DNA from: a phage
Strand: one strand, 5' to 3'
Sequence record: PZ445517.1
DNA length: 64,000 bases
The notes under the pieces are model-generated. The model saw nothing but the letters and a program-made list of their open reading frames with translations. It ran no database searches and had not been told where the DNA came from. Both the position numbers and the translations under genes were made by a program. Each line of letters starts with the position of its first letter. Within the stretch, counting starts at the first letter, position 1. This document shows, piece by piece, positions 1,914-50,229 of the stretch.

Positions 1914-2374
1914 TAGTAAAGGTCCTCAGAGTAAAGTTCTTTTTCACTACCACCGCGTTCAATACGTACTTGTCCAGCGTAAGTTGCAATAATCATTGCT
2001 TCTTCACGTGTCCAATAATTACTGTATTGGTCAATAAACCCTTGATCATCATCACAAACTTGCTGAGTAACTAATTGAGGTTTAACTACATCTAAAACTG
2101 CTGCCATGTCTTTAGAATAATGACGAGCACCTGGAATAACAAGAGTTCGTCCATCTTTTAATTTAAAACGGTTGGCTGCGCAAACAATTCGTCGTTGATA
2201 CTTTTGGTTTTCGTCCCAATATGCAGACTGCCAACAGATTTCAGGAACTTCTTTCAGAATATCTTCTTCTGTGCATTTATAACCATGCGCTTTAAATTTT
2301 TCAACAAGACTTTCTGGAGTTTCACGAGATAAAGGAACATTCAGCATTTTTAAACGATTAATAAATGGGTTCAT
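1913..2374 (-). CDS. hypothetical protein, 153 aa
   Basis: ORF in array, 4-nt ATGA-type overlap with the upstream ORF. Confidence 0.4.
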
Positions 2375-11529: not shown

Positions 11530-11559
11530 ATTATACCACATCCTTGTGGTAAAGTAAAC
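11530..11559 (-). promoter_or_regulatory. T4-type early promoter
   Basis: GTTTAC (11554-11559 rc), 18 nt, TGGTATAAT (11530-11538 rc). Confidence 0.6.
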
Positions 11560-13379
11560 TACTGGCTCATCCATTCTTTACGAAGGTCAGCATTATCTCC
11601 CATGAGCATTTCAAAAAGCTCTTTCCAATTCTCAGGAAGTTTAACAACATCATAAACTGGGTTTTGAATCATCTCACGATATTCAGATTTTTCCAAAGAG
11701 CCAAGTCCTTTAATATAACGGATGCTATGTTTAGGTAGAGCATCTTTGGCACTCTCATATTCAGCGACTGTATAAAACCATTCTTGTTTTTTACCGACCT
11801 GAGCGATGATTACAGGAGTTTTGACAAAGCGAATTCTTCCTTGTTCAAAAAGTTCTGGCCAATTACTAAAAAATCCGAGCAGAGAAGGATAAATGCTTCC
11901 TAGACCATCGTGGTCAGCATCGGTCATAATAGCAATATTATGATAATTCAAGTTTTCAGCTTTTTCACCAAGAACTAATCCAGTGATTGCACAAATATCA
12001 AACAGTTCTTTGTTTTTAAGCATATCAGCATATGACATACCCCAACTGTTAAGAACTTTACCACGTAATGGATAACCACCATGAAGTTCTTTATCACGAA
12101 CATCAATAAGATATCCGATAGCAGAATCACCCTCAGTCAAGAAAAGAGTAGTGTCAGCATCTTTACCACAAAGATTCGCTTTAATATGTTTATGAACCTT
12201 AGCTTTAGAAGCCTTTTTAGCTGCTTTAGTTTCTGCTGCTTTTTCTGCCGCCAATTTACGAGCCAAGGCAGCTTCAATAATTGGCATTAAAATTGCTTCA
12301 TTATTTAAAATAGCACGTGAAATCTTTTTAGCATCAAGCTGAATATGACTACGAATTTCACCAAATGGAGAAGTCAAACGCTCTTTAGTCTGAGAGTCAA
12401 ATCGCATGTTTTTCATATCACGAACAAACATAACGATAGTCAAACATTCTTTAACACGTGCTTTAGTTACATCAATTTTGAACTTACGTTTGATTTGTGG
12501 AATAAGGTCTTCACAAATATCATCCATAACACAGTCAATGTGATGGCCACCATTCTTAGTATGAATGTTATTGACGTACGTTAATTGACGAAAACCATCC
12601 GGCGAACGACCAACCGCAATAGAACAGTTTTCTTGTTCTTGAACGATAGCATGCTCATCATATTGGCGTGCATATTTCTTAAAATTACCCTGAACCTTTT
12701 TACCATTAAAGGTAAATTGAATATCAGGATAAACTACTGCAAGTGTCTGGAGACGATCTAGTGTAATGTCAAGATAAACTTGAGATAGCTCATTAGTTTC
12801 AAATGACATAAAATCAGGAATGAAAGTAACGCGAGTTCCTTTCCATTTTCCAGGAATATCTTCCCACGATTTATTTTCCATGCCGTTTGAACAACGAACT
12901 ACAATATTATTTTGACCGTCGCCAGTTTCACCGACAAACATCACAGAAAAAATGTTAGTTAAACTAGAACCAACACCATTCATACCACCGGTGACGCGTT
13001 CTTTATCATCACCAAAGTTACCACCTGCTTTTGGAATAGTCCAGGCAGCAACTGGACCAGGAATTTCTTCACCAGTAGGTGTTTTAACCATCGCCTGTGG
13101 AATACCACGACCGTTATCTTCAACTGTTACTTGATTGTTTTTGATAGTAACATTAATTTTATTTGCGAATTTAAACTTAGTACGAATACCTTCATCTACT
13201 GAGTTATCGATAATTTCATCAATAAGCTTAACAAGACCAGGTACATACTGAACACTTTCCCATTTACCAAACAGAAAGCGCTCATGCATTTCATTAGCAG
13301 AAGAGCCAATATACATGCCGCTACGCTTTTTGATATGTTCAATATCGCTCAGAATTTTAATTTCATTCTTAATCATCAC
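11559..13379 (-). CDS. 39: DNA topoisomerase II large subunit (GyrB-like ATPase plus TOPRIM), uninterrupted
   Basis: 606 aa continuous ORF; ...GMYIGS..., IDNSVDE, ...NGRGIP... GHKL ATPase motifs. Confidence 0.9.
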   Translation of the reverse strand: MMIKNEIKILSDIEHIKKRSGMYIGSSANEMHERFLFGKWESVQYVPGLVKLIDEIIDNSVDEGIRTKFKFANKINVTIKNNQVTVEDNGRGIPQAMVKTPTGEEIPGPVAAWTIPKAGGNFGDDKERVTGGMNGVGSSLTNIFSVMFVGETGDGQNNIVVRCSNGMENKSWEDIPGKWKGTRVTFIPDFMSFETNELSQVYLDITLDRLQTLAVVYPDIQFTFNGKKVQGNFKKYARQYDEHAIVQEQENCSIAVGRSPDGFRQLTYVNNIHTKNGGHHIDCVMDDICEDLIPQIKRKFKIDVTKARVKECLTIVMFVRDMKNMRFDSQTKERLTSPFGEIRSHIQLDAKKISRAILNNEAILMPIIEAALARKLAAEKAAETKAAKKASKAKVHKHIKANLCGKDADTTLFLTEGDSAIGYLIDVRDKELHGGYPLRGKVLNSWGMSYADMLKNKELFDICAITGLVLGEKAENLNYHNIAIMTDADHDGLGSIYPSLLGFFSNWPELFEQGRIRFVKTPVIIAQVGKKQEWFYTVAEYESAKDALPKHSIRYIKGLGSLEKSEYREMIQNPVYDVVKLPENWKELFEMLMGDNADLRKEWMSQ

Positions 13380-13718: not shown

Positions 13719-14082
13719 ATTTAATGGCTTGAAGGAGACTAATAATTCTCAAGCGACTTCTTTCATCTTTAACTGTAAAAGAAAGAGGGTCGCCAGATTT
13801 CATAGTGATAGTGCATTCAAAATCAAAATCTTCAGGAACTTCTTCGAAGAAGTCAAATTCTTCATCATAAATTAGAACATTACTCTGAAAACTGTGAAGA
13901 ATTTTTCCATCATTTCCAGATGCTGTACTAATCATTGTAACATTATGGCCTTTCATATCTTCAACGATAAATTCGCTTGTAGATATTACGGCATTAATAG
14001 AACCATTCCTATAAATAGAAGAAAGTAGATATTTCTTTTCTTCACCTTCGCGAACACGATATTTCTTACCAATTTTAAACAT
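13711..14082 (-). CDS. hypothetical protein, 123 aa
   Basis: ORF in array. Confidence 0.4.
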   Translation of the reverse strand: MFKIGKKYRVREGEEKKYLLSSIYRNGSINAVISTSEFIVEDMKGHNVTMISTASGNDGKILHSFQSNVLIYDEEFDFFEEVPEDFDFECTITMKSGDPLSFTVKDERSRLRIISLLQAIKFE

Positions 14083-23866: not shown

Positions 23867-24112
23867 TTAACCGCCAGTTACTTTCCACAAATCTTCGTTT
23901 GCAGCAATCCATTCAGTACGTTGATTTTCTTCATATACAGTAGTATATGCTGCTTTTTCTGAAGGGAATGTCTGGTAATGAGCGCCAGAAATTTTGTGAA
24001 CGTCAGAATAAAGAGGGAAAGCTACAGAAATTTCCTTTCCTTCAATTTTCTTATTTCCATCTAATTTCTGCTCAAACGTTTTGATATTAACATAACCGCG
24101 AGTACTAGCCAT
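23867..24112 (-). CDS. soc: small outer capsid protein Soc
   Basis: 81-codon ORF, MASTRGYVNIKTFEQKLDGNKKIEGKEISVAFPLYSDVHKISGAHYQTFPSEK... matches T4 Soc as recalled. Confidence 0.9.
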   Translation of the reverse strand: MASTRGYVNIKTFEQKLDGNKKIEGKEISVAFPLYSDVHKISGAHYQTFPSEKAAYTTVYEENQRTEWIAANEDLWKVTGG

Positions 24113-24142: not shown

Positions 24143-24150
24143 TATTTATA
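24143..24150 (-). promoter_or_regulatory. T4 late promoter (TATAAATA) for soc
   Basis: plus-strand tatttata is TATAAATA on the minus strand, about 30 nt upstream of the soc ATG. Confidence 0.55.
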
Positions 24151-24713: not shown

Positions 24714-24980
24714 TATTTTTCCTTTCAATTCATGGATTAGTAGATTAATTATACAATAAATATATAAAGCAATAAGGAGGACATATGGTACAAAAATTAA
24801 TGGCACTTGTTAATGCCATCAAAGGTAATAAAAACGTATAGCTTTTACTATTTCTGCTATGATAGGAATTTTACTTTGGAATTTTGTTTTATCGCCAGTT
24901 GCTATTGCTCATGGCGTTAGTATTCCAGTAATTACTCTTGATACATTCGTAGATTTAGCATTTGCTTTAGTTGGGTTAAT

Positions 24981-26009
24981 TTAAATCTTAGCATATTTAG
25001 ATAACCGCATTTTAGCCATCAACCCCTGGGCAATATTATTTTTCATATATTCCATAATTTGTTCAGGGGTTGCACCTTCCTTTCTAATCATATCATTAAC
25101 ATCTTTTGATTTCCAGGGAGATTTATCCCAAAACATAACCCTTTCTCCTGCATCAACTAATTTAGTCATTCGTTTGATAGTGTCAGGGTGACGAGGTTCA
25201 TTATCTAAAACCCACACTCGTCTATCTTTAAATGGAACAACTTCTAGGTCTAATTGACCACCTGTAATAGCTATACCATTTTCAATAAAAAGTGAATCGA
25301 TGGGTCCTTCTAGAACATATACATCACCATCTTTAACTCGTTCAACACCGTAAATTTTTGTTGCTTCAGGATAAGCTTTGATGGTGATATATTTTTGGGG
25401 AGCATCTTTCTTTAATGCACGTCCTTGAAAAGACTCAGCTTTTCCATTAGCATTATAAATTGGAATAACAAGACGAGGCTCAGGTATTTCTTTTTTATAT
25501 GTTCCTGGTGCTATACTATTAACTAATTTAGGCCATTCAGTTGTAAACCAAAGATATTTCCATTTATCCTTTGGAATACAACGAGCTTTTACGTATTTTA
25601 TAATTGGATGGTCTTCCGCCAGTTTATCTAATCTAATGCATGACGGAAGAGATTTAATTATTTTCTTCTCGGATTGTTTAGGAAGTTCTTTAGGTTTTTC
25701 TACTGGACGACTTTTACCTTTTTCTTTTCTTATTTCAAAGATATACTCACGATATAAATCAGGTTCAAACTCCTTTAAATATATTCCGATTGGTGCATGA
25801 TAGTTACAGTTATAACAATGAATATTTCCTTCATTATTATCACCGTAATACCATCCACGGGCTTTATTTTGGTCGGTTTTTGAATCTCCACAAACAGGAC
25901 ATCTAAACCGTAATTTAAAAGTTGAACTATTATTTACTTGTGTGAATTTAGGTAAATGAGCTAATGCACGGTATGCAAACTCATTATCAATCCAAGGTAT
26001 TGATGACAT
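24981..26009 (-). CDS. 61: DNA primase gp61
   Basis: 342 aa, same length as T4 gp61; N-terminal zinc ribbon CPVCGDS...CYNC plus TOPRIM-like region. Confidence 0.9.
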   Translation of the reverse strand: MSSIPWIDNEFAYRALAHLPKFTQVNNSSTFKLRFRCPVCGDSKTDQNKARGWYYGDNNEGNIHCYNCNYHAPIGIYLKEFEPDLYREYIFEIRKEKGKSRPVEKPKELPKQSEKKIIKSLPSCIRLDKLAEDHPIIKYVKARCIPKDKWKYLWFTTEWPKLVNSIAPGTYKKEIPEPRLVIPIYNANGKAESFQGRALKKDAPQKYITIKAYPEATKIYGVERVKDGDVYVLEGPIDSLFIENGIAITGGQLDLEVVPFKDRRVWVLDNEPRHPDTIKRMTKLVDAGERVMFWDKSPWKSKDVNDMIRKEGATPEQIMEYMKNNIAQGLMAKMRLSKYAKI

Positions 26010-39110: not shown

Positions 39111-39302
39111 TTAGTCATAATAATCAGTAACAGTCCAAGCTTCATTTCTATTGGACATTATTTTTGTATATTCTGCTTTAAATGCATTCCTAAGCATAGA
39201 TTCAGTAACTATATGCTCTTCATTAGAAAAATTATTTCTCAGAATATATCGTTTTATTTCAGGAAAAGTTAATAAATGCTGTCCAGTTGAATATTCTGCC
39301 AC
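39111..39302 (-). CDS. hypothetical protein, 63 aa (45.2 position)
   Basis: ORF. Confidence 0.4.
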   Translation of the reverse strand: MAEYSTGQHLLTFPEIKRYILRNNFSNEEHIVTESMLRNAFKAEYTKIMSNRNEAWTVTDYYD

Positions 39303-39312
39303 AGTTCCTCCG

Positions 39313-39320
39313 TATAAATA
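39313..39320 (+). promoter_or_regulatory. T4 late promoter (TATAAATA) for the plus-strand HNH gene
   Basis: tataaata at 39313-39320, about 33 nt upstream of ATG 39354; AAGGA Shine-Dalgarno in between. Confidence 0.55.
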
Positions 39321-39353
39321 TGTTTATCACTCGCTGTATCAAAAGGATATGTT

Positions 39354-40070
39354 ATGAATTATAAACTAATTTATGAAAAGTTAATCTCTAATGCTAAATC
39401 TCGAAAACTTGATTGTTATACTGAATCTCATCACATTATACCACGCTGTTTAAATGGCAGCGATGATGCTTCAAACTTAGTAGATTTAACACCAGAAGAG
39501 CACTATGTAGCTCATCAACTTTTAGTAAAAATTTATCCTTCTGAACCAAAATTAGTCTATGCTGCTAACATGATGACAGTTTCTACGAAATACGCTAAAC
39601 GCAACAATAAAACTTTCGGTTGGATTCGTCGTAAACTCTGGGAAATAGAAAAGAATAAAGAATTCTCCCAGGAGACACGAAAGAAAATGTCTGATGCAGT
39701 AGCTAATAAAGCAAGACTAACTTGTCCTCATTGCGGTAAGTCTGGATTAAGCGGGAATATGAATCGTTGGCATTTTGATAACTGCCCAAATCACCCTAAT
39801 CCTAAAGTTAGACCACCAATGTCTAAAGAACACAGAAATAATATCTCAAACGGGCTTAAAGCAATCGTTCTTGAAGAAACATCCTGCGAATTCTGCGGAA
39901 TGATAGGCAAGAAATGCGTTATCGCAGCGCATAGAAATTTCTGCAAGAAAAATCCAAATGGACGCAAGAAAACTGAAAAGACTGGTACTTGCGTCCATTG
40001 TGGTAAAGTTACCACTTTCGGAAATTTATCAAGATGGCATAATGATAACTGTAAATATAAACTTAGCTAA
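39354..40070 (+). mobile_element. free-standing HNH homing endonuclease (Mob-like) with three CCHC zinc-finger-like repeats
   Basis: 238 aa on the opposite strand to all neighbours; HNH motif ...ESHHIIPRCLNGSDDASNLVDLTPEEHYVAH...; three CxxC-x11-H-x3-C modules; 3' end overlaps the gene 46 stop convergently. Confidence 0.8.
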
Positions 40071-41751
40071 TCTTAGCTAAACTAAATCTACCAACTTTTT
40101 CCATCTGAATATGCTGACCATATTCTTGTGGGTCATGGTCTTTATGTGAAATTATGAAGAAGTTGGTATCCTTCAAACCATCTAAAATTTTAGCTACATT
40201 TTTAATACCTTCAGCATCAAATGCACCGTCATACACTTCATCAAGAAATAAACAACTTATTTTAACACCTGAAACTTTTTCAGCAATATCACGCCAAGTA
40301 AATAAAAGAGCAATATCAATTCGCGCTTTTTCACCTTGACTGAATGAAGCATAACTAAAATCTTCACGACCACGGGATTTAATTGTCTCATTAAATTCTT
40401 CATCTAATGTAAACACATAATCCGCTTCCATTATTTTAAGATAATGGTTAATCTGCTTATTAAATAATGGAATGTACTTTTTAATAATAGCACCTTTAAT
40501 ACCAGAATCTTTGAGCATATCAGTCAAAATTCCTCGGTGGTATTTTTCCATTACTAAATTAGTTTTTGTCTTAACAATTTTATCAAGTTCTTCTTGAAGC
40601 AGTGCTATTTCATCAGCATGGTCAATAAACTCAGAAGATGCTTTTTCTATAGCTGCTTTAACTTTTTTAGCTTTATCTACTGTCGTGATTAGAGATTGCT
40701 TTTTATTGCGAATATCATTTGCTAACGACTGCTGGGTTTTAATATTATCTCGGTATTCATCAACAAGAACTTTTAAATTATCACGGTGTGTTGAAAGCTG
40801 TTCAAACGAATGCGTACATTCAGAAACTTTATCTTTAATTTTAGAAACAACTTTATCACCGGAACTTAATTGTGACAAGCAGGTTGGACATAATCCACCT
40901 TCGTGATACATATTAATGACTTTATTATACGAGTCAATTTTTGATTTAATTAAAACTGCTTCTTGACCGATTTTATTAAATGCATCAGTCGGGTCTTCAT
41001 CTAAAACAATATTAACTAATCTTTCATTAGCTTCTTCTATTTCCGATTTTAGCGTTCTAGCTTCTTTTGCCAAATCATCATACATATTTTGAAGACGAGT
41101 AAGGTTGTCACCCGTTAATTTTTTCTGGCGTTCAACGTTATCATTATATATTTTAATTTGTTGGATAATACTATCTTTTTTAACATCAAGCACTTGGTTT
41201 TGTGAATTTAATTCACGTATTAGCGCTTTATTAAGCTTATCCATTTCAGCTAATGTTCCTACCTCAAGCAGGTCTTCCACAAGCTTTCTTCGCGCAGGGG
41301 TCGACAAACCCATGAAAGGGGTATACCCTGCTGTACCAAGAACAACAATCTGCTTGAAACTGGCATATGACATTCCGATAAGCTGTTCAAATTCTGCTTG
41401 GAAATCTTTACTGCTGGCAGATTCATTAAGACGTGTACCGTTAACGGTGATTTCGAAAACGTTTGGTTTTTGTCCTCTTTTGATATAGTACTTTTTCTCA
41501 TCATATTCCATCCACAATTCAACTAAAAGTTCTTTCTTATTTGTGCTGTTTATTAATTGACCTTTCTTTACATCACGAAATGGCTTGCCAAAAAGCCCAA
41601 ATGTGATGGCTTCTAACATAGTAGACTTACCACCGCCATTTCGGCCAGTAATAAGAGTTTTTTGAACCTTATCTAATTGAATGTCAATAGGATTTCCACC
41701 TACTGACATTATATTTTGATACCTAACTCGGTTTAGTTTAAAATTCTTCAC
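40063..41751 (-). CDS. 46: recombination endonuclease subunit gp46 (Rad50/SbcC-like)
   Basis: 562 aa; Walker A GRNGGGKST, long coiled-coil, CPTC zinc hook, C-terminal ABC signature region. Confidence 0.9.
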   Translation of the reverse strand: MKNFKLNRVRYQNIMSVGGNPIDIQLDKVQKTLITGRNGGGKSTMLEAITFGLFGKPFRDVKKGQLINSTNKKELLVELWMEYDEKKYYIKRGQKPNVFEITVNGTRLNESASSKDFQAEFEQLIGMSYASFKQIVVLGTAGYTPFMGLSTPARRKLVEDLLEVGTLAEMDKLNKALIRELNSQNQVLDVKKDSIIQQIKIYNDNVERQKKLTGDNLTRLQNMYDDLAKEARTLKSEIEEANERLVNIVLDEDPTDAFNKIGQEAVLIKSKIDSYNKVINMYHEGGLCPTCLSQLSSGDKVVSKIKDKVSECTHSFEQLSTHRDNLKVLVDEYRDNIKTQQSLANDIRNKKQSLITTVDKAKKVKAAIEKASSEFIDHADEIALLQEELDKIVKTKTNLVMEKYHRGILTDMLKDSGIKGAIIKKYIPLFNKQINHYLKIMEADYVFTLDEEFNETIKSRGREDFSYASFSQGEKARIDIALLFTWRDIAEKVSGVKISCLFLDEVYDGAFDAEGIKNVAKILDGLKDTNFFIISHKDHDPQEYGQHIQMEKVGRFSLAKIS

Positions 41752-48929: not shown

Positions 48930-49400
48930 TTAATCATGTTTCCACACCCCATCGGTATTTGACCAAAGTCGCTGATTATCTGATCCTCGCCACAGCTTTT
49001 TAGTCGGAAGATTTTTCTCATACTTCCCATCAATAATAACATCAACATATTTAAGCATTTCTAGTTGTTTAATATCTTCAAACTTATATCCTGTCCACAA
49101 CCAAATGCTTTTATTGGGATAAAGATTTTTAATAGTTTGAACCACAGAGTGAATCACGTCTCTGTTATCAGGATAAAGAGGGTCACCTCCGGTTATAGTC
49201 AATCCTTCTATATAATCATTATTCAAACATTCAATTAATTGTTCTAGTGTTTCACCAGTGAATGGAACACCATTTCTAGCATTCCATGTTGATTTATTAT
49301 AACACCCTTCGCATTTATGCAAACAACCCGTAACGAAAAGAACTGTCCTGCATCCAGGACCATTAACAAAGCAGCACGGGTATATTCTGTCATAATTCAT
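48930..49400 (-). CDS. nrdG: anaerobic ribonucleotide reductase activating protein NrdG (radical SAM)
   Basis: 156 aa, same length as T4 NrdG; Cys cluster CLHKCEGC. Confidence 0.85.
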   Translation of the reverse strand: MNYDRIYPCCFVNGPGCRTVLFVTGCLHKCEGCYNKSTWNARNGVPFTGETLEQLIECLNNDYIEGLTITGGDPLYPDNRDVIHSVVQTIKNLYPNKSIWLWTGYKFEDIKQLEMLKYVDVIIDGKYEKNLPTKKLWRGSDNQRLWSNTDGVWKHD

Positions 49401-50229
49401 TTATATATTTCCAATTATAGCCTTCAACACTTTTACGTTCGCCATTTAAACATTTTAAAATATTTCCTTTGCTAGAAATATTAAAATATTTTGCTGCGTC
49501 TGGTATATAATTAAATGTTTTTAAAAGAACACCATCTTTATATGCGCCAAATAAATTAAGAGTATATTTTTCTCGAAGACGCTGATGTTTCCTTTTCATA
49601 ACCTCAGGATTTGCATACGCCAACTTCAATGAATTTCTGTGTTTTTCTTTTACTTCAGGTTTTTGCATTGCTAACTTAGTTAGCCTGGAAATTTTATTTC
49701 TAACTTCGTCAGTTTTCATTGCATTTGACAAATTTAATAAAGTTTTATTTCTAACTTCAGGTTTTTGCATTGCTAACTTAGTTAGTTCTCTATGTCTTTT
49801 TCTAAAATCGTCATCCTTCCATATATTTTTCGATAATTTTGACATAGAGCGGTGAAATAATTCCTTTTCACTGGAATACAATTTAAAAATTTCATCCAAT
49901 TCATCCGCATTAAATCTATCGGTATTCGAGTTTATCATTCTATGAAAGGCATAACACATTTTACTATTGCTTGTTTTAGCTAAATAGTAATGAGCTAACG
50001 CATGGTCATAATATGACAAATTAACAATATTCCATTTATCTGTTTTATATTCAGGAAATATAGATTTGGGAAGCACGTGATGTGCTTCCGTTTTTCCTTT
50101 TATTTTAGGATTATTATAATTTTTTGTTATCAAATCAACATATGACAATAGTAAATCATTATTTTCTTCAAATATTAAAGCTAATTTATCATTCACAAAA
50201 TCGCAAGGATAAAATCTATCATAATTCAT
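49390..50229 (-). mobile_element. Mob-type HNH homing endonuclease inserted between nrdD and nrdG
   Basis: 279 aa; HNH motif ...EAHHVLPKSIFPE...NIVNLSYYDHALAH; first 13 codons MNYDRFYPCDFVN echo the nrdG N-terminus MNYDRIYPCCFVN; tandem LTKLAMQKPEV repeats. Confidence 0.8.
49652..49785. repeat. 32-bp perfect direct repeat pair inside the HNH gene
   Basis: acttcaggtttttgcattgctaacttagttag at 49652-49683 and 49754-49785; encodes the repeated LTKLAMQKPEV module. Confidence 0.7.

Follow-up and report, generated by a model that had tools for sequence, protein, structure and literature searches.

A probable late-expressed homing endonuclease cassette at the 3′ end of gene 46 in a Tequatrovirus genome

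The homing endonuclease genes of bacteriophage T4 are the closest described counterparts of the gene reported here. SegF, SegG, and MobE attack the endonuclease-less allele of a co-infecting relative within or beside a conserved neighboring gene; during repair the endonuclease gene and flanking markers are copied, and sequence differences protect the carrier (PMC2988022, PMC2993671, PMC2790892). The genes mobA, mobC, mobD, and mobE have been described as promoter-less cassettes, and all T4 homing endonuclease genes are co-oriented with their neighbors except the promoter-less segD (PMC2988022). In the enzyme I-TevIII, the motif CX2CX12-13HX3C binds zinc and is required for DNA binding and for the dimerization that gives the double-strand break (PMC1865063). 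We analyzed a 64,000-nt stretch of phage DNA (record PZ445517.1; hereafter the window, to which all coordinates refer unless a locus is named), which matches the Tequatrovirus Escherichia phage T4_ev240 (LR597657.1) without a difference over 41 kb or more. Between genes 45.2 and 46, both on the minus strand, the window carries a plus-strand open reading frame (ORF) of 238 aa at 39354-40070, here called the homing endonuclease (HE) gene. The gene is an intact, unexceptional representative of a familiar class, and sequence comparison makes it likely that it forms a late-expressed, free-standing homing endonuclease cassette targeting the 3′ end of gene 46.

The gene, the cassette, and the two neighboring genes were delimited as follows.

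39354-40070, plus strand: HE ORF; matches PHROG 655 ‘homing endonuclease’ (E = 7.5e-69); AlphaFold2 mean predicted local distance difference test score (pLDDT) of 93.4

39297-40082, no strand assigned: mobile cassette of 786 bp; homology to 13 of 13 HE-minus loci ends at exactly 39296 and restarts at 40083

39111-39302, minus strand: gene 45.2; HE-positive alleles begin with GTG and have one additional Ala codon; the Shine-Dalgarno sequence lies directly against the late promoter’s reverse complement

40063-41751, minus strand: gene 46 (Rad50/SbcC-like); its last codons come from the cassette (...GRFSLAKIS versus ...GRFTVMV in T4)

40063-40070, no strand assigned: convergent HE/gene 46 overlap of 8 nt, within an AT-rich palindrome pair (TTAGCTAA twice)

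The HE gene was present in 60 of approximately 504 Tequatrovirus records (98-100% identity; RB32, RB33, and RB51 included), whereas the 45.2/46 junction was uninterrupted in 444 records, T4 and T2 among them. Fourteen of approximately 157 Mosigvirus records were HE-positive. The gene therefore shows presence/absence polymorphism at one fixed intergenic site, one of the patterns by which a free-standing homing endonuclease is recognized. An earlier reading made from the letters of the window alone (the sequence-only reading) had placed an endonuclease gene between 45.2 and gene 46 on the opposite strand and had proposed a comparison across relatives. The gene was found where it had been placed, and the 444 insert-free alleles show that it is not carried by all relatives. 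The population analysis covered 18 hand-fetched loci (6 HE-positive and 12 HE-minus in the fixed-difference comparison) and BLAST band counts rather than all of the approximately 504 genomes, and an IMG/VR search with RpbA yielded six loci only.

In the HE-minus genomes, the cassette corresponds to 72 bp, which it replaces: the 45.2 start codon, a 55-bp spacer (the length of the T4 45.2/46 spacer), and the last codons of gene 46. Consequently, both the tail of gp46 and the start of 45.2 differ in HE-positive phages. The extra Ala codon of 45.2 was also present in the HE-positive Mosigvirus allele and absent from the HE-minus Mosigvirus allele, which points to a common cassette structure in the two genera. 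A 9-bp direct repeat at the 3′ end of the cassette (CTTAGCTAA twice) was considered as a target-site duplication and rejected because it was not conserved in other HE-positive phages; most of these have CCTAGCTAA...CTTAGCTAA, and it is absent in RB51. Among six HE-positive Tequatrovirus phages, the ratio of nonsynonymous to synonymous polymorphism (pN/pS) of the HE ORF was 0.02-0.17, and the protein is thus maintained by purifying selection rather than decaying. Two Mosigvirus records that share the name mar005P1, LR027390.1 (L027) and OZ035759.1 (L028), differed in HE carriage; they were approximately 2% diverged over 17 kb and so are not the same isolate.

Full-length homologs, 42-65% identical, occurred in 113 further phage records. 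In all seven other lineages that were fetched, representing at least four genera, the HE homolog was convergent with gene 46 and abutted or overlapped its 3′ end (these lineages include Yersinia phage MHG19, a metagenomic lineage, Mosigvirus, Klebsiella phage Roth78, Slopekvirus phT4A, and Pseudotevenvirus leB). In phT4A and leB the left-hand neighbor of the HE gene differed, and the gene 46 site was unchanged. The 8-nt overlap that the sequence-only reading had described was recovered in the window (HE stop codon TAA at 40068-40070; gene 46 stop codon at 40063-40065, minus strand). Across lineages, however, the junction ranged from a 6-nt gap to a 23-nt overlap, and the 8-nt overlap is therefore incidental rather than conserved.

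Three signals were located upstream of the HE ORF.

39313-39320, plus strand: T4-type late promoter octamer TATAAATA, 33 nt 5′ of the HE ORF start

39333-39343, plus strand: motif GCTGTATCAAA in the 5′ untranslated region, adjoining the Shine-Dalgarno sequence and conserved across lineages

39343-39347, plus strand: Shine-Dalgarno sequence AAGGA of the HE ORF, 6 nt 5′ of the ATG

A late promoter had already been read ahead of the gene from the letters alone, and comparison supported it: TATAAATA was kept 33-48 nt 5′ of the ATG in six of the eight lineages (this one included), with CTTAAATA in the other two, and the late promoter was retained ahead of homologs as low as 57-65% identical. The predicted transcription start lies near 39326-39328 (plus strand). 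Within the window the octamer was depleted (3 copies versus 10.3 expected from shuffles), which indicates that it is selected against there. One other copy (24143-24150, minus strand) lies 31 nt 5′ of soc (23867-24112, minus strand) and fits late expression of soc. Given the depletion and this copy before soc, the correctly placed copy at the HE ORF is unlikely to be accidental. The third copy (14010-14017, plus strand) lies within a minus-strand ORF with no plus-strand gene downstream, and is a possible orphan or antisense late promoter. We consider it probable that the HE gene, which runs against all its neighbors, is a late gene with TATAAATA as its own promoter.

The motif GCTGTATCAAA was the same or nearly the same in lineages L005, L006, L008, and L031, with ATCAAA retained in L029 and L030, although the proteins of those lineages were only 57-65% identical. 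Its role could, speculatively, be translational or autoregulatory, comparable to that of the I-TevI operator. All other plus-strand ORFs of at least 90 aa in the window overlapped minus-strand genes, which leaves the HE gene as the sole credible internal plus-strand gene. The sequence-only reading had called it the only one; this held for credible genes and failed for annotated ones, since one GenBank record annotates a 41-aa plus-strand ORF at window positions 24859-24984, near gene 61.

Six elements of the protein were mapped onto the sequence.

39423-39515, plus strand: HNH (beta-beta-alpha-metal) core, residues 24-54, motif ESHHIIP...N41...EEHYVAH

39663-39701, plus strand: NUMOD3-like helix 1, FSQETRKKMSDAV; weak Pfam match; model helix 106-117

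39723-39785, plus strand: zinc finger 1, C124-X2-C127-X12-H140-X3-C144; beta-hairpin plus helix in the model

39819-39857, plus strand: NUMOD3-like helix 2, MSKEHRNNISNGL; SxExRxxxS repeat; model helix 158-170

39885-39944, plus strand: zinc finger 2, C178-X2-C181-X11-H193-X3-C197; from sequence and alignment to I-TevIII

39990-40052, plus strand: zinc finger 3, C213-X2-C216-X12-H229-X3-C233; invariant ligands

Judged from sequence and model together, the HE protein is a Mob-type HNH N-terminal part joined to a C-terminal, predicted DNA-binding array with three I-TevIII-type CCHC fingers and two NUMOD3 helices. The AlphaFold2 model contained the same parts: a beta-beta-alpha core (strands 24-27 and 42-45, helix 47-60), two NUMOD3 helices, and three beta-hairpin-plus-helix fingers. 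All residues of the HNH core recognized earlier (ESHHIIP...EEHYVAH) were intact, with E24, H26, H27, P30, G35, N41, H50, and H54 invariant in 78 homologs. The core thus has the conserved His (general base), the Asn, and the His/Asn metal ligand of an HNH nuclease on a beta-beta-alpha fold. The HNH domain is a divergent subtype, and class membership rests on motif, fold, and Mob homology. PF07460 (NUMOD3) was present in many homologs of the protein. Three finger modules had been read as CxxC-x11-H-x3-C. The number was right, but the spacers were 12, 11, and 12 residues rather than 11 throughout, the middle one being one residue below the published motif. Finger 3 was the only finger invariant family-wide (C213, C216, H229, and C233 in the 78 homologs). 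A PDB sequence search with the HE protein found no significant solved relative, and whole-chain Foldseek against PDB found nothing significant (best E = 0.024, to CTCF-type C2H2 finger arrays; other weak matches were small HNH domains); the multidomain, beads-on-a-string model probably limits whole-chain fold searches.

Next to the cassette, gene 46 contained one strongly divergent segment.

40083-40285, minus strand: hypervariable 3′ block of gene 46, coding for Walker B through the H-loop

Divergence between HE-positive and HE-minus genomes was 14-32% in this block versus 0-3% over most of the remaining gene 46. Between T4 and the window, the approximately 260 bp of gene 46 beside the insert differed by approximately 18%, and most of the rest by 1-2%. 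All 20 fixed differences between HE-positive and HE-minus loci fell at 40089-40254, and none fell in the left flank. Three block haplotypes were observed (HE-positive, T4-type, and T2-type), and HE-minus genomes are thus also hypervariable in the block. Sixty records were at least 95% identical to the HE-positive block and 473 were 80-90% identical, with none in between. Phage KMB22 was the only HE-minus Tequatrovirus phage with the HE-positive type of block; since the 60 block-matching records include it, one HE-positive record probably has a different or truncated block. A hypervariable block lay at the same place in Mosigvirus, where the HE-positive haplotype was also carried by HE-minus phages such as HX01 and LR027390. 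This population footprint, a divergent block linked to the HE gene plus HE-minus genomes that carry the block, would fit one-way gene conversion in which flanking markers are co-converted. Such genomes (KMB22, HX01, and LR027390) are a prediction of co-conversion from a distant cut. Co-conversion after cleavage at a distance from the endonuclease gene has been described for SegG (cited in PMC2993671). By sequence, the block is a candidate cleavage and immunity region and a candidate co-conversion tract.

The mechanism we propose is as follows. During mixed infection, the enzyme would bind the 3′ end of gene 46 in a related phage that lacks the HE gene, and would cut or nick it there. The cut would most likely fall 50-220 bp from the insertion point, inside the block of approximately 200 bp that codes for Walker B to the H-loop, a placement to which we give somewhat better than even chances; it is favored because HE-minus genomes carry the block without the HE gene and because the 45.2/46 spacer is not conserved between genera. 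A cut site spanning the gene 46 stop codon and the spacer junction would be the alternative and is given appreciably less weight. Recombinational repair would then copy the cassette and the adjacent gene 46 sequence from the HE-positive genome, and the carrier would be protected either by the many substitutions in its own gene 46 block or by the splitting of the site by the cassette. What is predicted here from sequence comprises cleavage, the position of the target, nicking as opposed to double-strand breakage, late transcription of the gene, and antisense read-through.

Several observations weigh against this reading. The HE-positive Mosigvirus OZ035759 shares its gene 46 block with the HE-minus LR027390 and HX01, so that block divergence is not required for the two types to coexist and the target could span the junction. 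A need of block divergence for self-immunity was thereby weakened, and the tight linkage of block and HE gene in Tequatrovirus could reflect proximity after one heterologous acquisition rather than immunity. Both Pfam matches were below the gathering score (HNH, PF01844, 16.9 versus 21.4 bits, E = 0.0071; NUMOD3, residues 103-115, E = 0.13). A hairpin that sequesters the ribosome-binding site, as in mobE and I-TevI, was sought and rejected, because the HE 5′ region folded no better than shuffles (z = −0.40); the region thus lacks a feature of other T4 homing endonuclease genes. Finally, the literature searched contained no experimental study of the HE gene and hence no cleavage, homing, or transcript data.

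The Mosigvirus comparison bears directly on a second possibility, in which the homing site spans the insertion point (the last gene 46 codons, the stop codon, and the spacer), as it does for intron-encoded enzymes, the cassette splits this site, and the block is a hitch-hiking tract from a foreign donor. The gene 46 3′ ends of OZ035759 and of the HE-minus LR027390 and HX01 were near-identical, with 2 nt different beside the boundary plus the replaced segment. In Tequatrovirus, five substitutions common to all HE-minus genomes, KMB22 included, lie at 40089-40110, at the boundary. The finger domain, moreover, derives from an intron-encoded enzyme (I-TevIII) with a site across its insertion point. 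This possibility is a serious rival, which we nevertheless consider less likely than a target in the block, because the element keeps its site across genera and yet the 45.2/46 spacer is not conserved between them, and because homing from a break at the junction does not directly yield HE-minus genomes with the HE-positive type of block. The characterized T4 enzymes SegF, SegG, and MobE cut within the flanking gene, away from their own insertion points (PMC2988022, PMC2993671). We therefore retain homing on the 3′ end of gene 46, with a target in the block, as the preferred reading.

Inside the HE ORF, two possible signals for the genes of the minus strand were recognized.

39838-39863, minus strand: MotA-box middle-promoter-like TGCTTTA-N13-TATTAT; weak

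39957-39999, no strand assigned: perfect 12-bp stem with a 19-nt loop, approximately −21 kcal/mol; z = −4.6 (plus strand) and −5.1 (minus strand), values that are inflated since the region was chosen after the repeat was seen

The stem is one of approximately four true hairpin repeats in the window. On the minus strand it is followed by AUUUUUCUU (a U tract), which makes it terminator-like for transcripts leaving gene 46. Different strong hairpins were found in the 3′ half of the HE gene in other lineages (L005, 3514-3547; L006, 3621-3641; L031, 2006-2042). An Rfam match of the internal hairpin to RAGATH-8 was below threshold (21.5 versus 86.7 bits) and was taken as chance. The HE-minus T4, T2, and KMB22 have a strong MotA-box-like site, TGCTTTA-N11-TATAAT, in the spacer that the cassette replaces (T4 locus L002, approximately 1916-1941, minus strand), and the embedded site may replace this displaced spacer promoter. 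The MotA-box pattern occurred 15 times in the window versus 4.8 expected, with 11 occurrences on the minus strand. More speculatively, both embedded sites may be host-gene signals within the cassette.

These signals are the basis for regarding the HE gene as a stranded or domesticated relic that no longer homes and is kept because its deletion would remove the end of gene 46, the 45.2 start and ribosome-binding site, and possibly a terminator and a middle promoter. The cassette does provide the C-terminal tail of gp46 and the start codon and Shine-Dalgarno sequence of 45.2, its minus strand carries the MotA-box-like site (39863-39838) and the terminator-like hairpin (39957-39999), and T4 homing endonuclease genes are known to be retained through host promoters embedded in them (PMC2988022). 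We consider the relic explanation unlikely, however, since the low pN/pS and the invariance of catalytic residues and zinc ligands over homologs of 42-65% identity imply selection on the HE protein itself, and since the embedded promoter-like site was not conserved in other lineages (L005 and L006 both lack it). In addition, the low and patchy frequency in two genera (9-12%) is more readily explained by a mobile element than by a domesticated gene that has become fixed.

Downstream of the HE gene, no terminator-like site was found on the plus strand between 40070 and 42044, and the hairpin at the HE and gene 46 stop codons had no T tract on the plus strand; a late transcript would thus probably run antisense into gene 46. 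On this evidence, antisense read-through into gene 46 is plausible. The main effect of the HE gene might then be regulatory or competitive, with late antisense RNA shutting off the Rad50-like protein or the nuclease disabling gene 46 of co-infecting rivals. Gene 46 is required for recombination-dependent replication in T4, which is established biology. The missing plus-strand terminator speaks for such an effect, as does an orientation opposed to all neighbors, shared among T4 homing endonuclease genes only by the promoter-less segD. In its fullest form, the cassette would be a competition-and-regulation module, conserved in all eight lineages: its nuclease would cut the gene 46 of rivals, spread the cassette, and cripple their recombination-dependent replication; antisense RNA would act over the phage’s own gene 46; and the terminator (39957-39999) and middle promoter (39863-39838) would rewire 45.2-rpbA. 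We regard both the simpler and the fuller form as very unlikely. Lineages L006, L008, and L031 have a GC-rich hairpin between the HE gene and gene 46, although without a plus-strand T tract, antisense read-through could be a tolerated by-product, and ordinary homing is already accepted to cause marker exclusion.

Other mobile elements were observed in the window and in related phages. A second putative homing endonuclease gene (279 aa, HNH with NUMOD3-like repeats) lies at 49390-50229 (minus strand), between nrdG and an intron-less nrdD; it sits where T4 has mobC and is distantly related to the HE gene (34% over 76 aa). The topoisomerase large-subunit gene 39 is a single ORF of 606 aa (11559-13379, minus strand); in T4, this subunit is presumably split into genes 39 and 60, with mobA nearby. 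The window also has no mobB between a-gt and gene 55. With gene 39 unsplit and mobB missing, T4_ev240, despite its name, is not T4 in mobile-element content. In Aplg8 (L021, 4468-4801), PP01 (L024, 3654-3987), and T2 (L023, 3923-4263), another annotated homing endonuclease gene lies just upstream of gene 46, at the place where the window has 46.1 and 46.2, so that some phages have a mobile endonuclease gene on either side of gene 46. The divergence of RB51 from window position 41688 may reflect the same upstream insert. The strongest hairpin in the window was a perfect 14-nt inverted repeat (TCTCAACGATAAAG / CTTTATCGTTGAGA, 19-nt spacer) at 1546-1592, intergenic between two minus-strand ORFs.

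A 2006 annotation of RB32 already lists the HE gene (RB32ORF054w, ‘putative site-specific intron-like DNA endonuclease, similar to mobB’), and a 2010 review counted it as ‘mob-like HNH’; the copies in RB32, RB33, and RB51 are annotated as putative mobB-like homing endonucleases. In the literature searched, we did not find descriptions of a Mob/I-TevIII chimera with three fingers, of the conserved opposite orientation and late promoter of the HE gene, of its constant position next to the gene 46 end in eight lineages, or of the linked hypervariable block. The protein represents a natural domain swap, in which a Mob-type nuclease is combined with I-TevIII-type fingers and one extra finger. Its gene is among the few of this kind that face against their neighbors with a conserved late promoter of their own, and in each of the eight lineages it occupies one and the same site, where a recombination gene ends. 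The natural T4-type, T2-type, KMB22, and HX01 alleles could separate the two target-site models without engineering, and those who design compact programmable nickases might take an interest in three CCHC fingers in tandem behind a small HNH domain.

Compared with the Mob family (MobA-E, of which MobE has been characterized; PMC2790892), the HE protein was similar in its N-terminal part only. Residues 1-110 were 44% identical to T4 MobB (BLASTP, E = 3e-29), and the N-terminal part was 36-37% identical to MobE (E = 1e-22) and MobC (E = 5e-22); the T4 stretch where mobD maps, in a record that leaves mobD unannotated, matched at 53% over 75 aa (tblastn). The Mob-type nuclease domain MNY...HHIIPR...NLV.LT..EH was present, but no significant alignment to any Mob protein extended past residue 134. 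Mob genes are likewise free-standing, intergenic between conserved genes, and patchy, and a NUMOD3 motif follows the nuclease domain of their products. Mob proteins are, however, without CCHC fingers, whereas the C-terminal half of the HE protein bears three. Moreover, T4 mob genes are co-oriented with their neighbors, whereas the HE gene is opposed to them and has its own late promoter. Unlike T4 mob genes, it also overlaps and rewrites the end of the adjoining gene.

The C-terminal half was most similar to I-TevIII, the HNH enzyme of the RB3 nrdB intron. Fingers 2 and 3 of the HE protein were collinear with fingers 1 and 2 of I-TevIII (36% over 67 aa, E = 2e-9), an NPN linker was common to HE fingers 2-3 and to the I-TevIII fingers, and HE residues 118-238 matched the finger region of RB3 I-TevIII. 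The HE fingers are thus tandem modules homologous to I-TevIII residues 200-268, and PHROGs with I-TevIII-like proteins also matched HE residues 165-236. Finger 1, which was 50% identical over 28 aa to finger 2 of I-TevIII, is by sequence an extra copy relative to the I-TevIII pair. In both proteins the HNH nuclease is N-terminal to the fingers, and I-TevIII is also late-expressed. The I-TevIII HNH domain is a different subtype, and the HE protein had no significant match to the I-TevIII N-terminus. Whereas I-TevIII is intron-encoded, has two fingers, and targets nrdB, the HE gene is free-standing, with three fingers and gene 46 as its putative target.

With the T4 enzymes SegF and SegG (GIY-YIG family; intronless homing and marker exclusion), the likeness is one of predicted lifestyle rather than of family, the HE protein belonging to the HNH family instead. 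From its population patterns, the HE gene would share with them a distant cut in a flanking conserved gene, co-conversion, and protection by polymorphism (PMC2993671, PMC2988022). The orientation opposed to the neighbors is shared with segD, the only T4 homing endonuclease gene so placed (PMC2988022). However, segD is promoter-less and thought to be barely expressed, whereas the HE gene is preceded by a consensus late promoter that is conserved and by a good ribosome-binding site.

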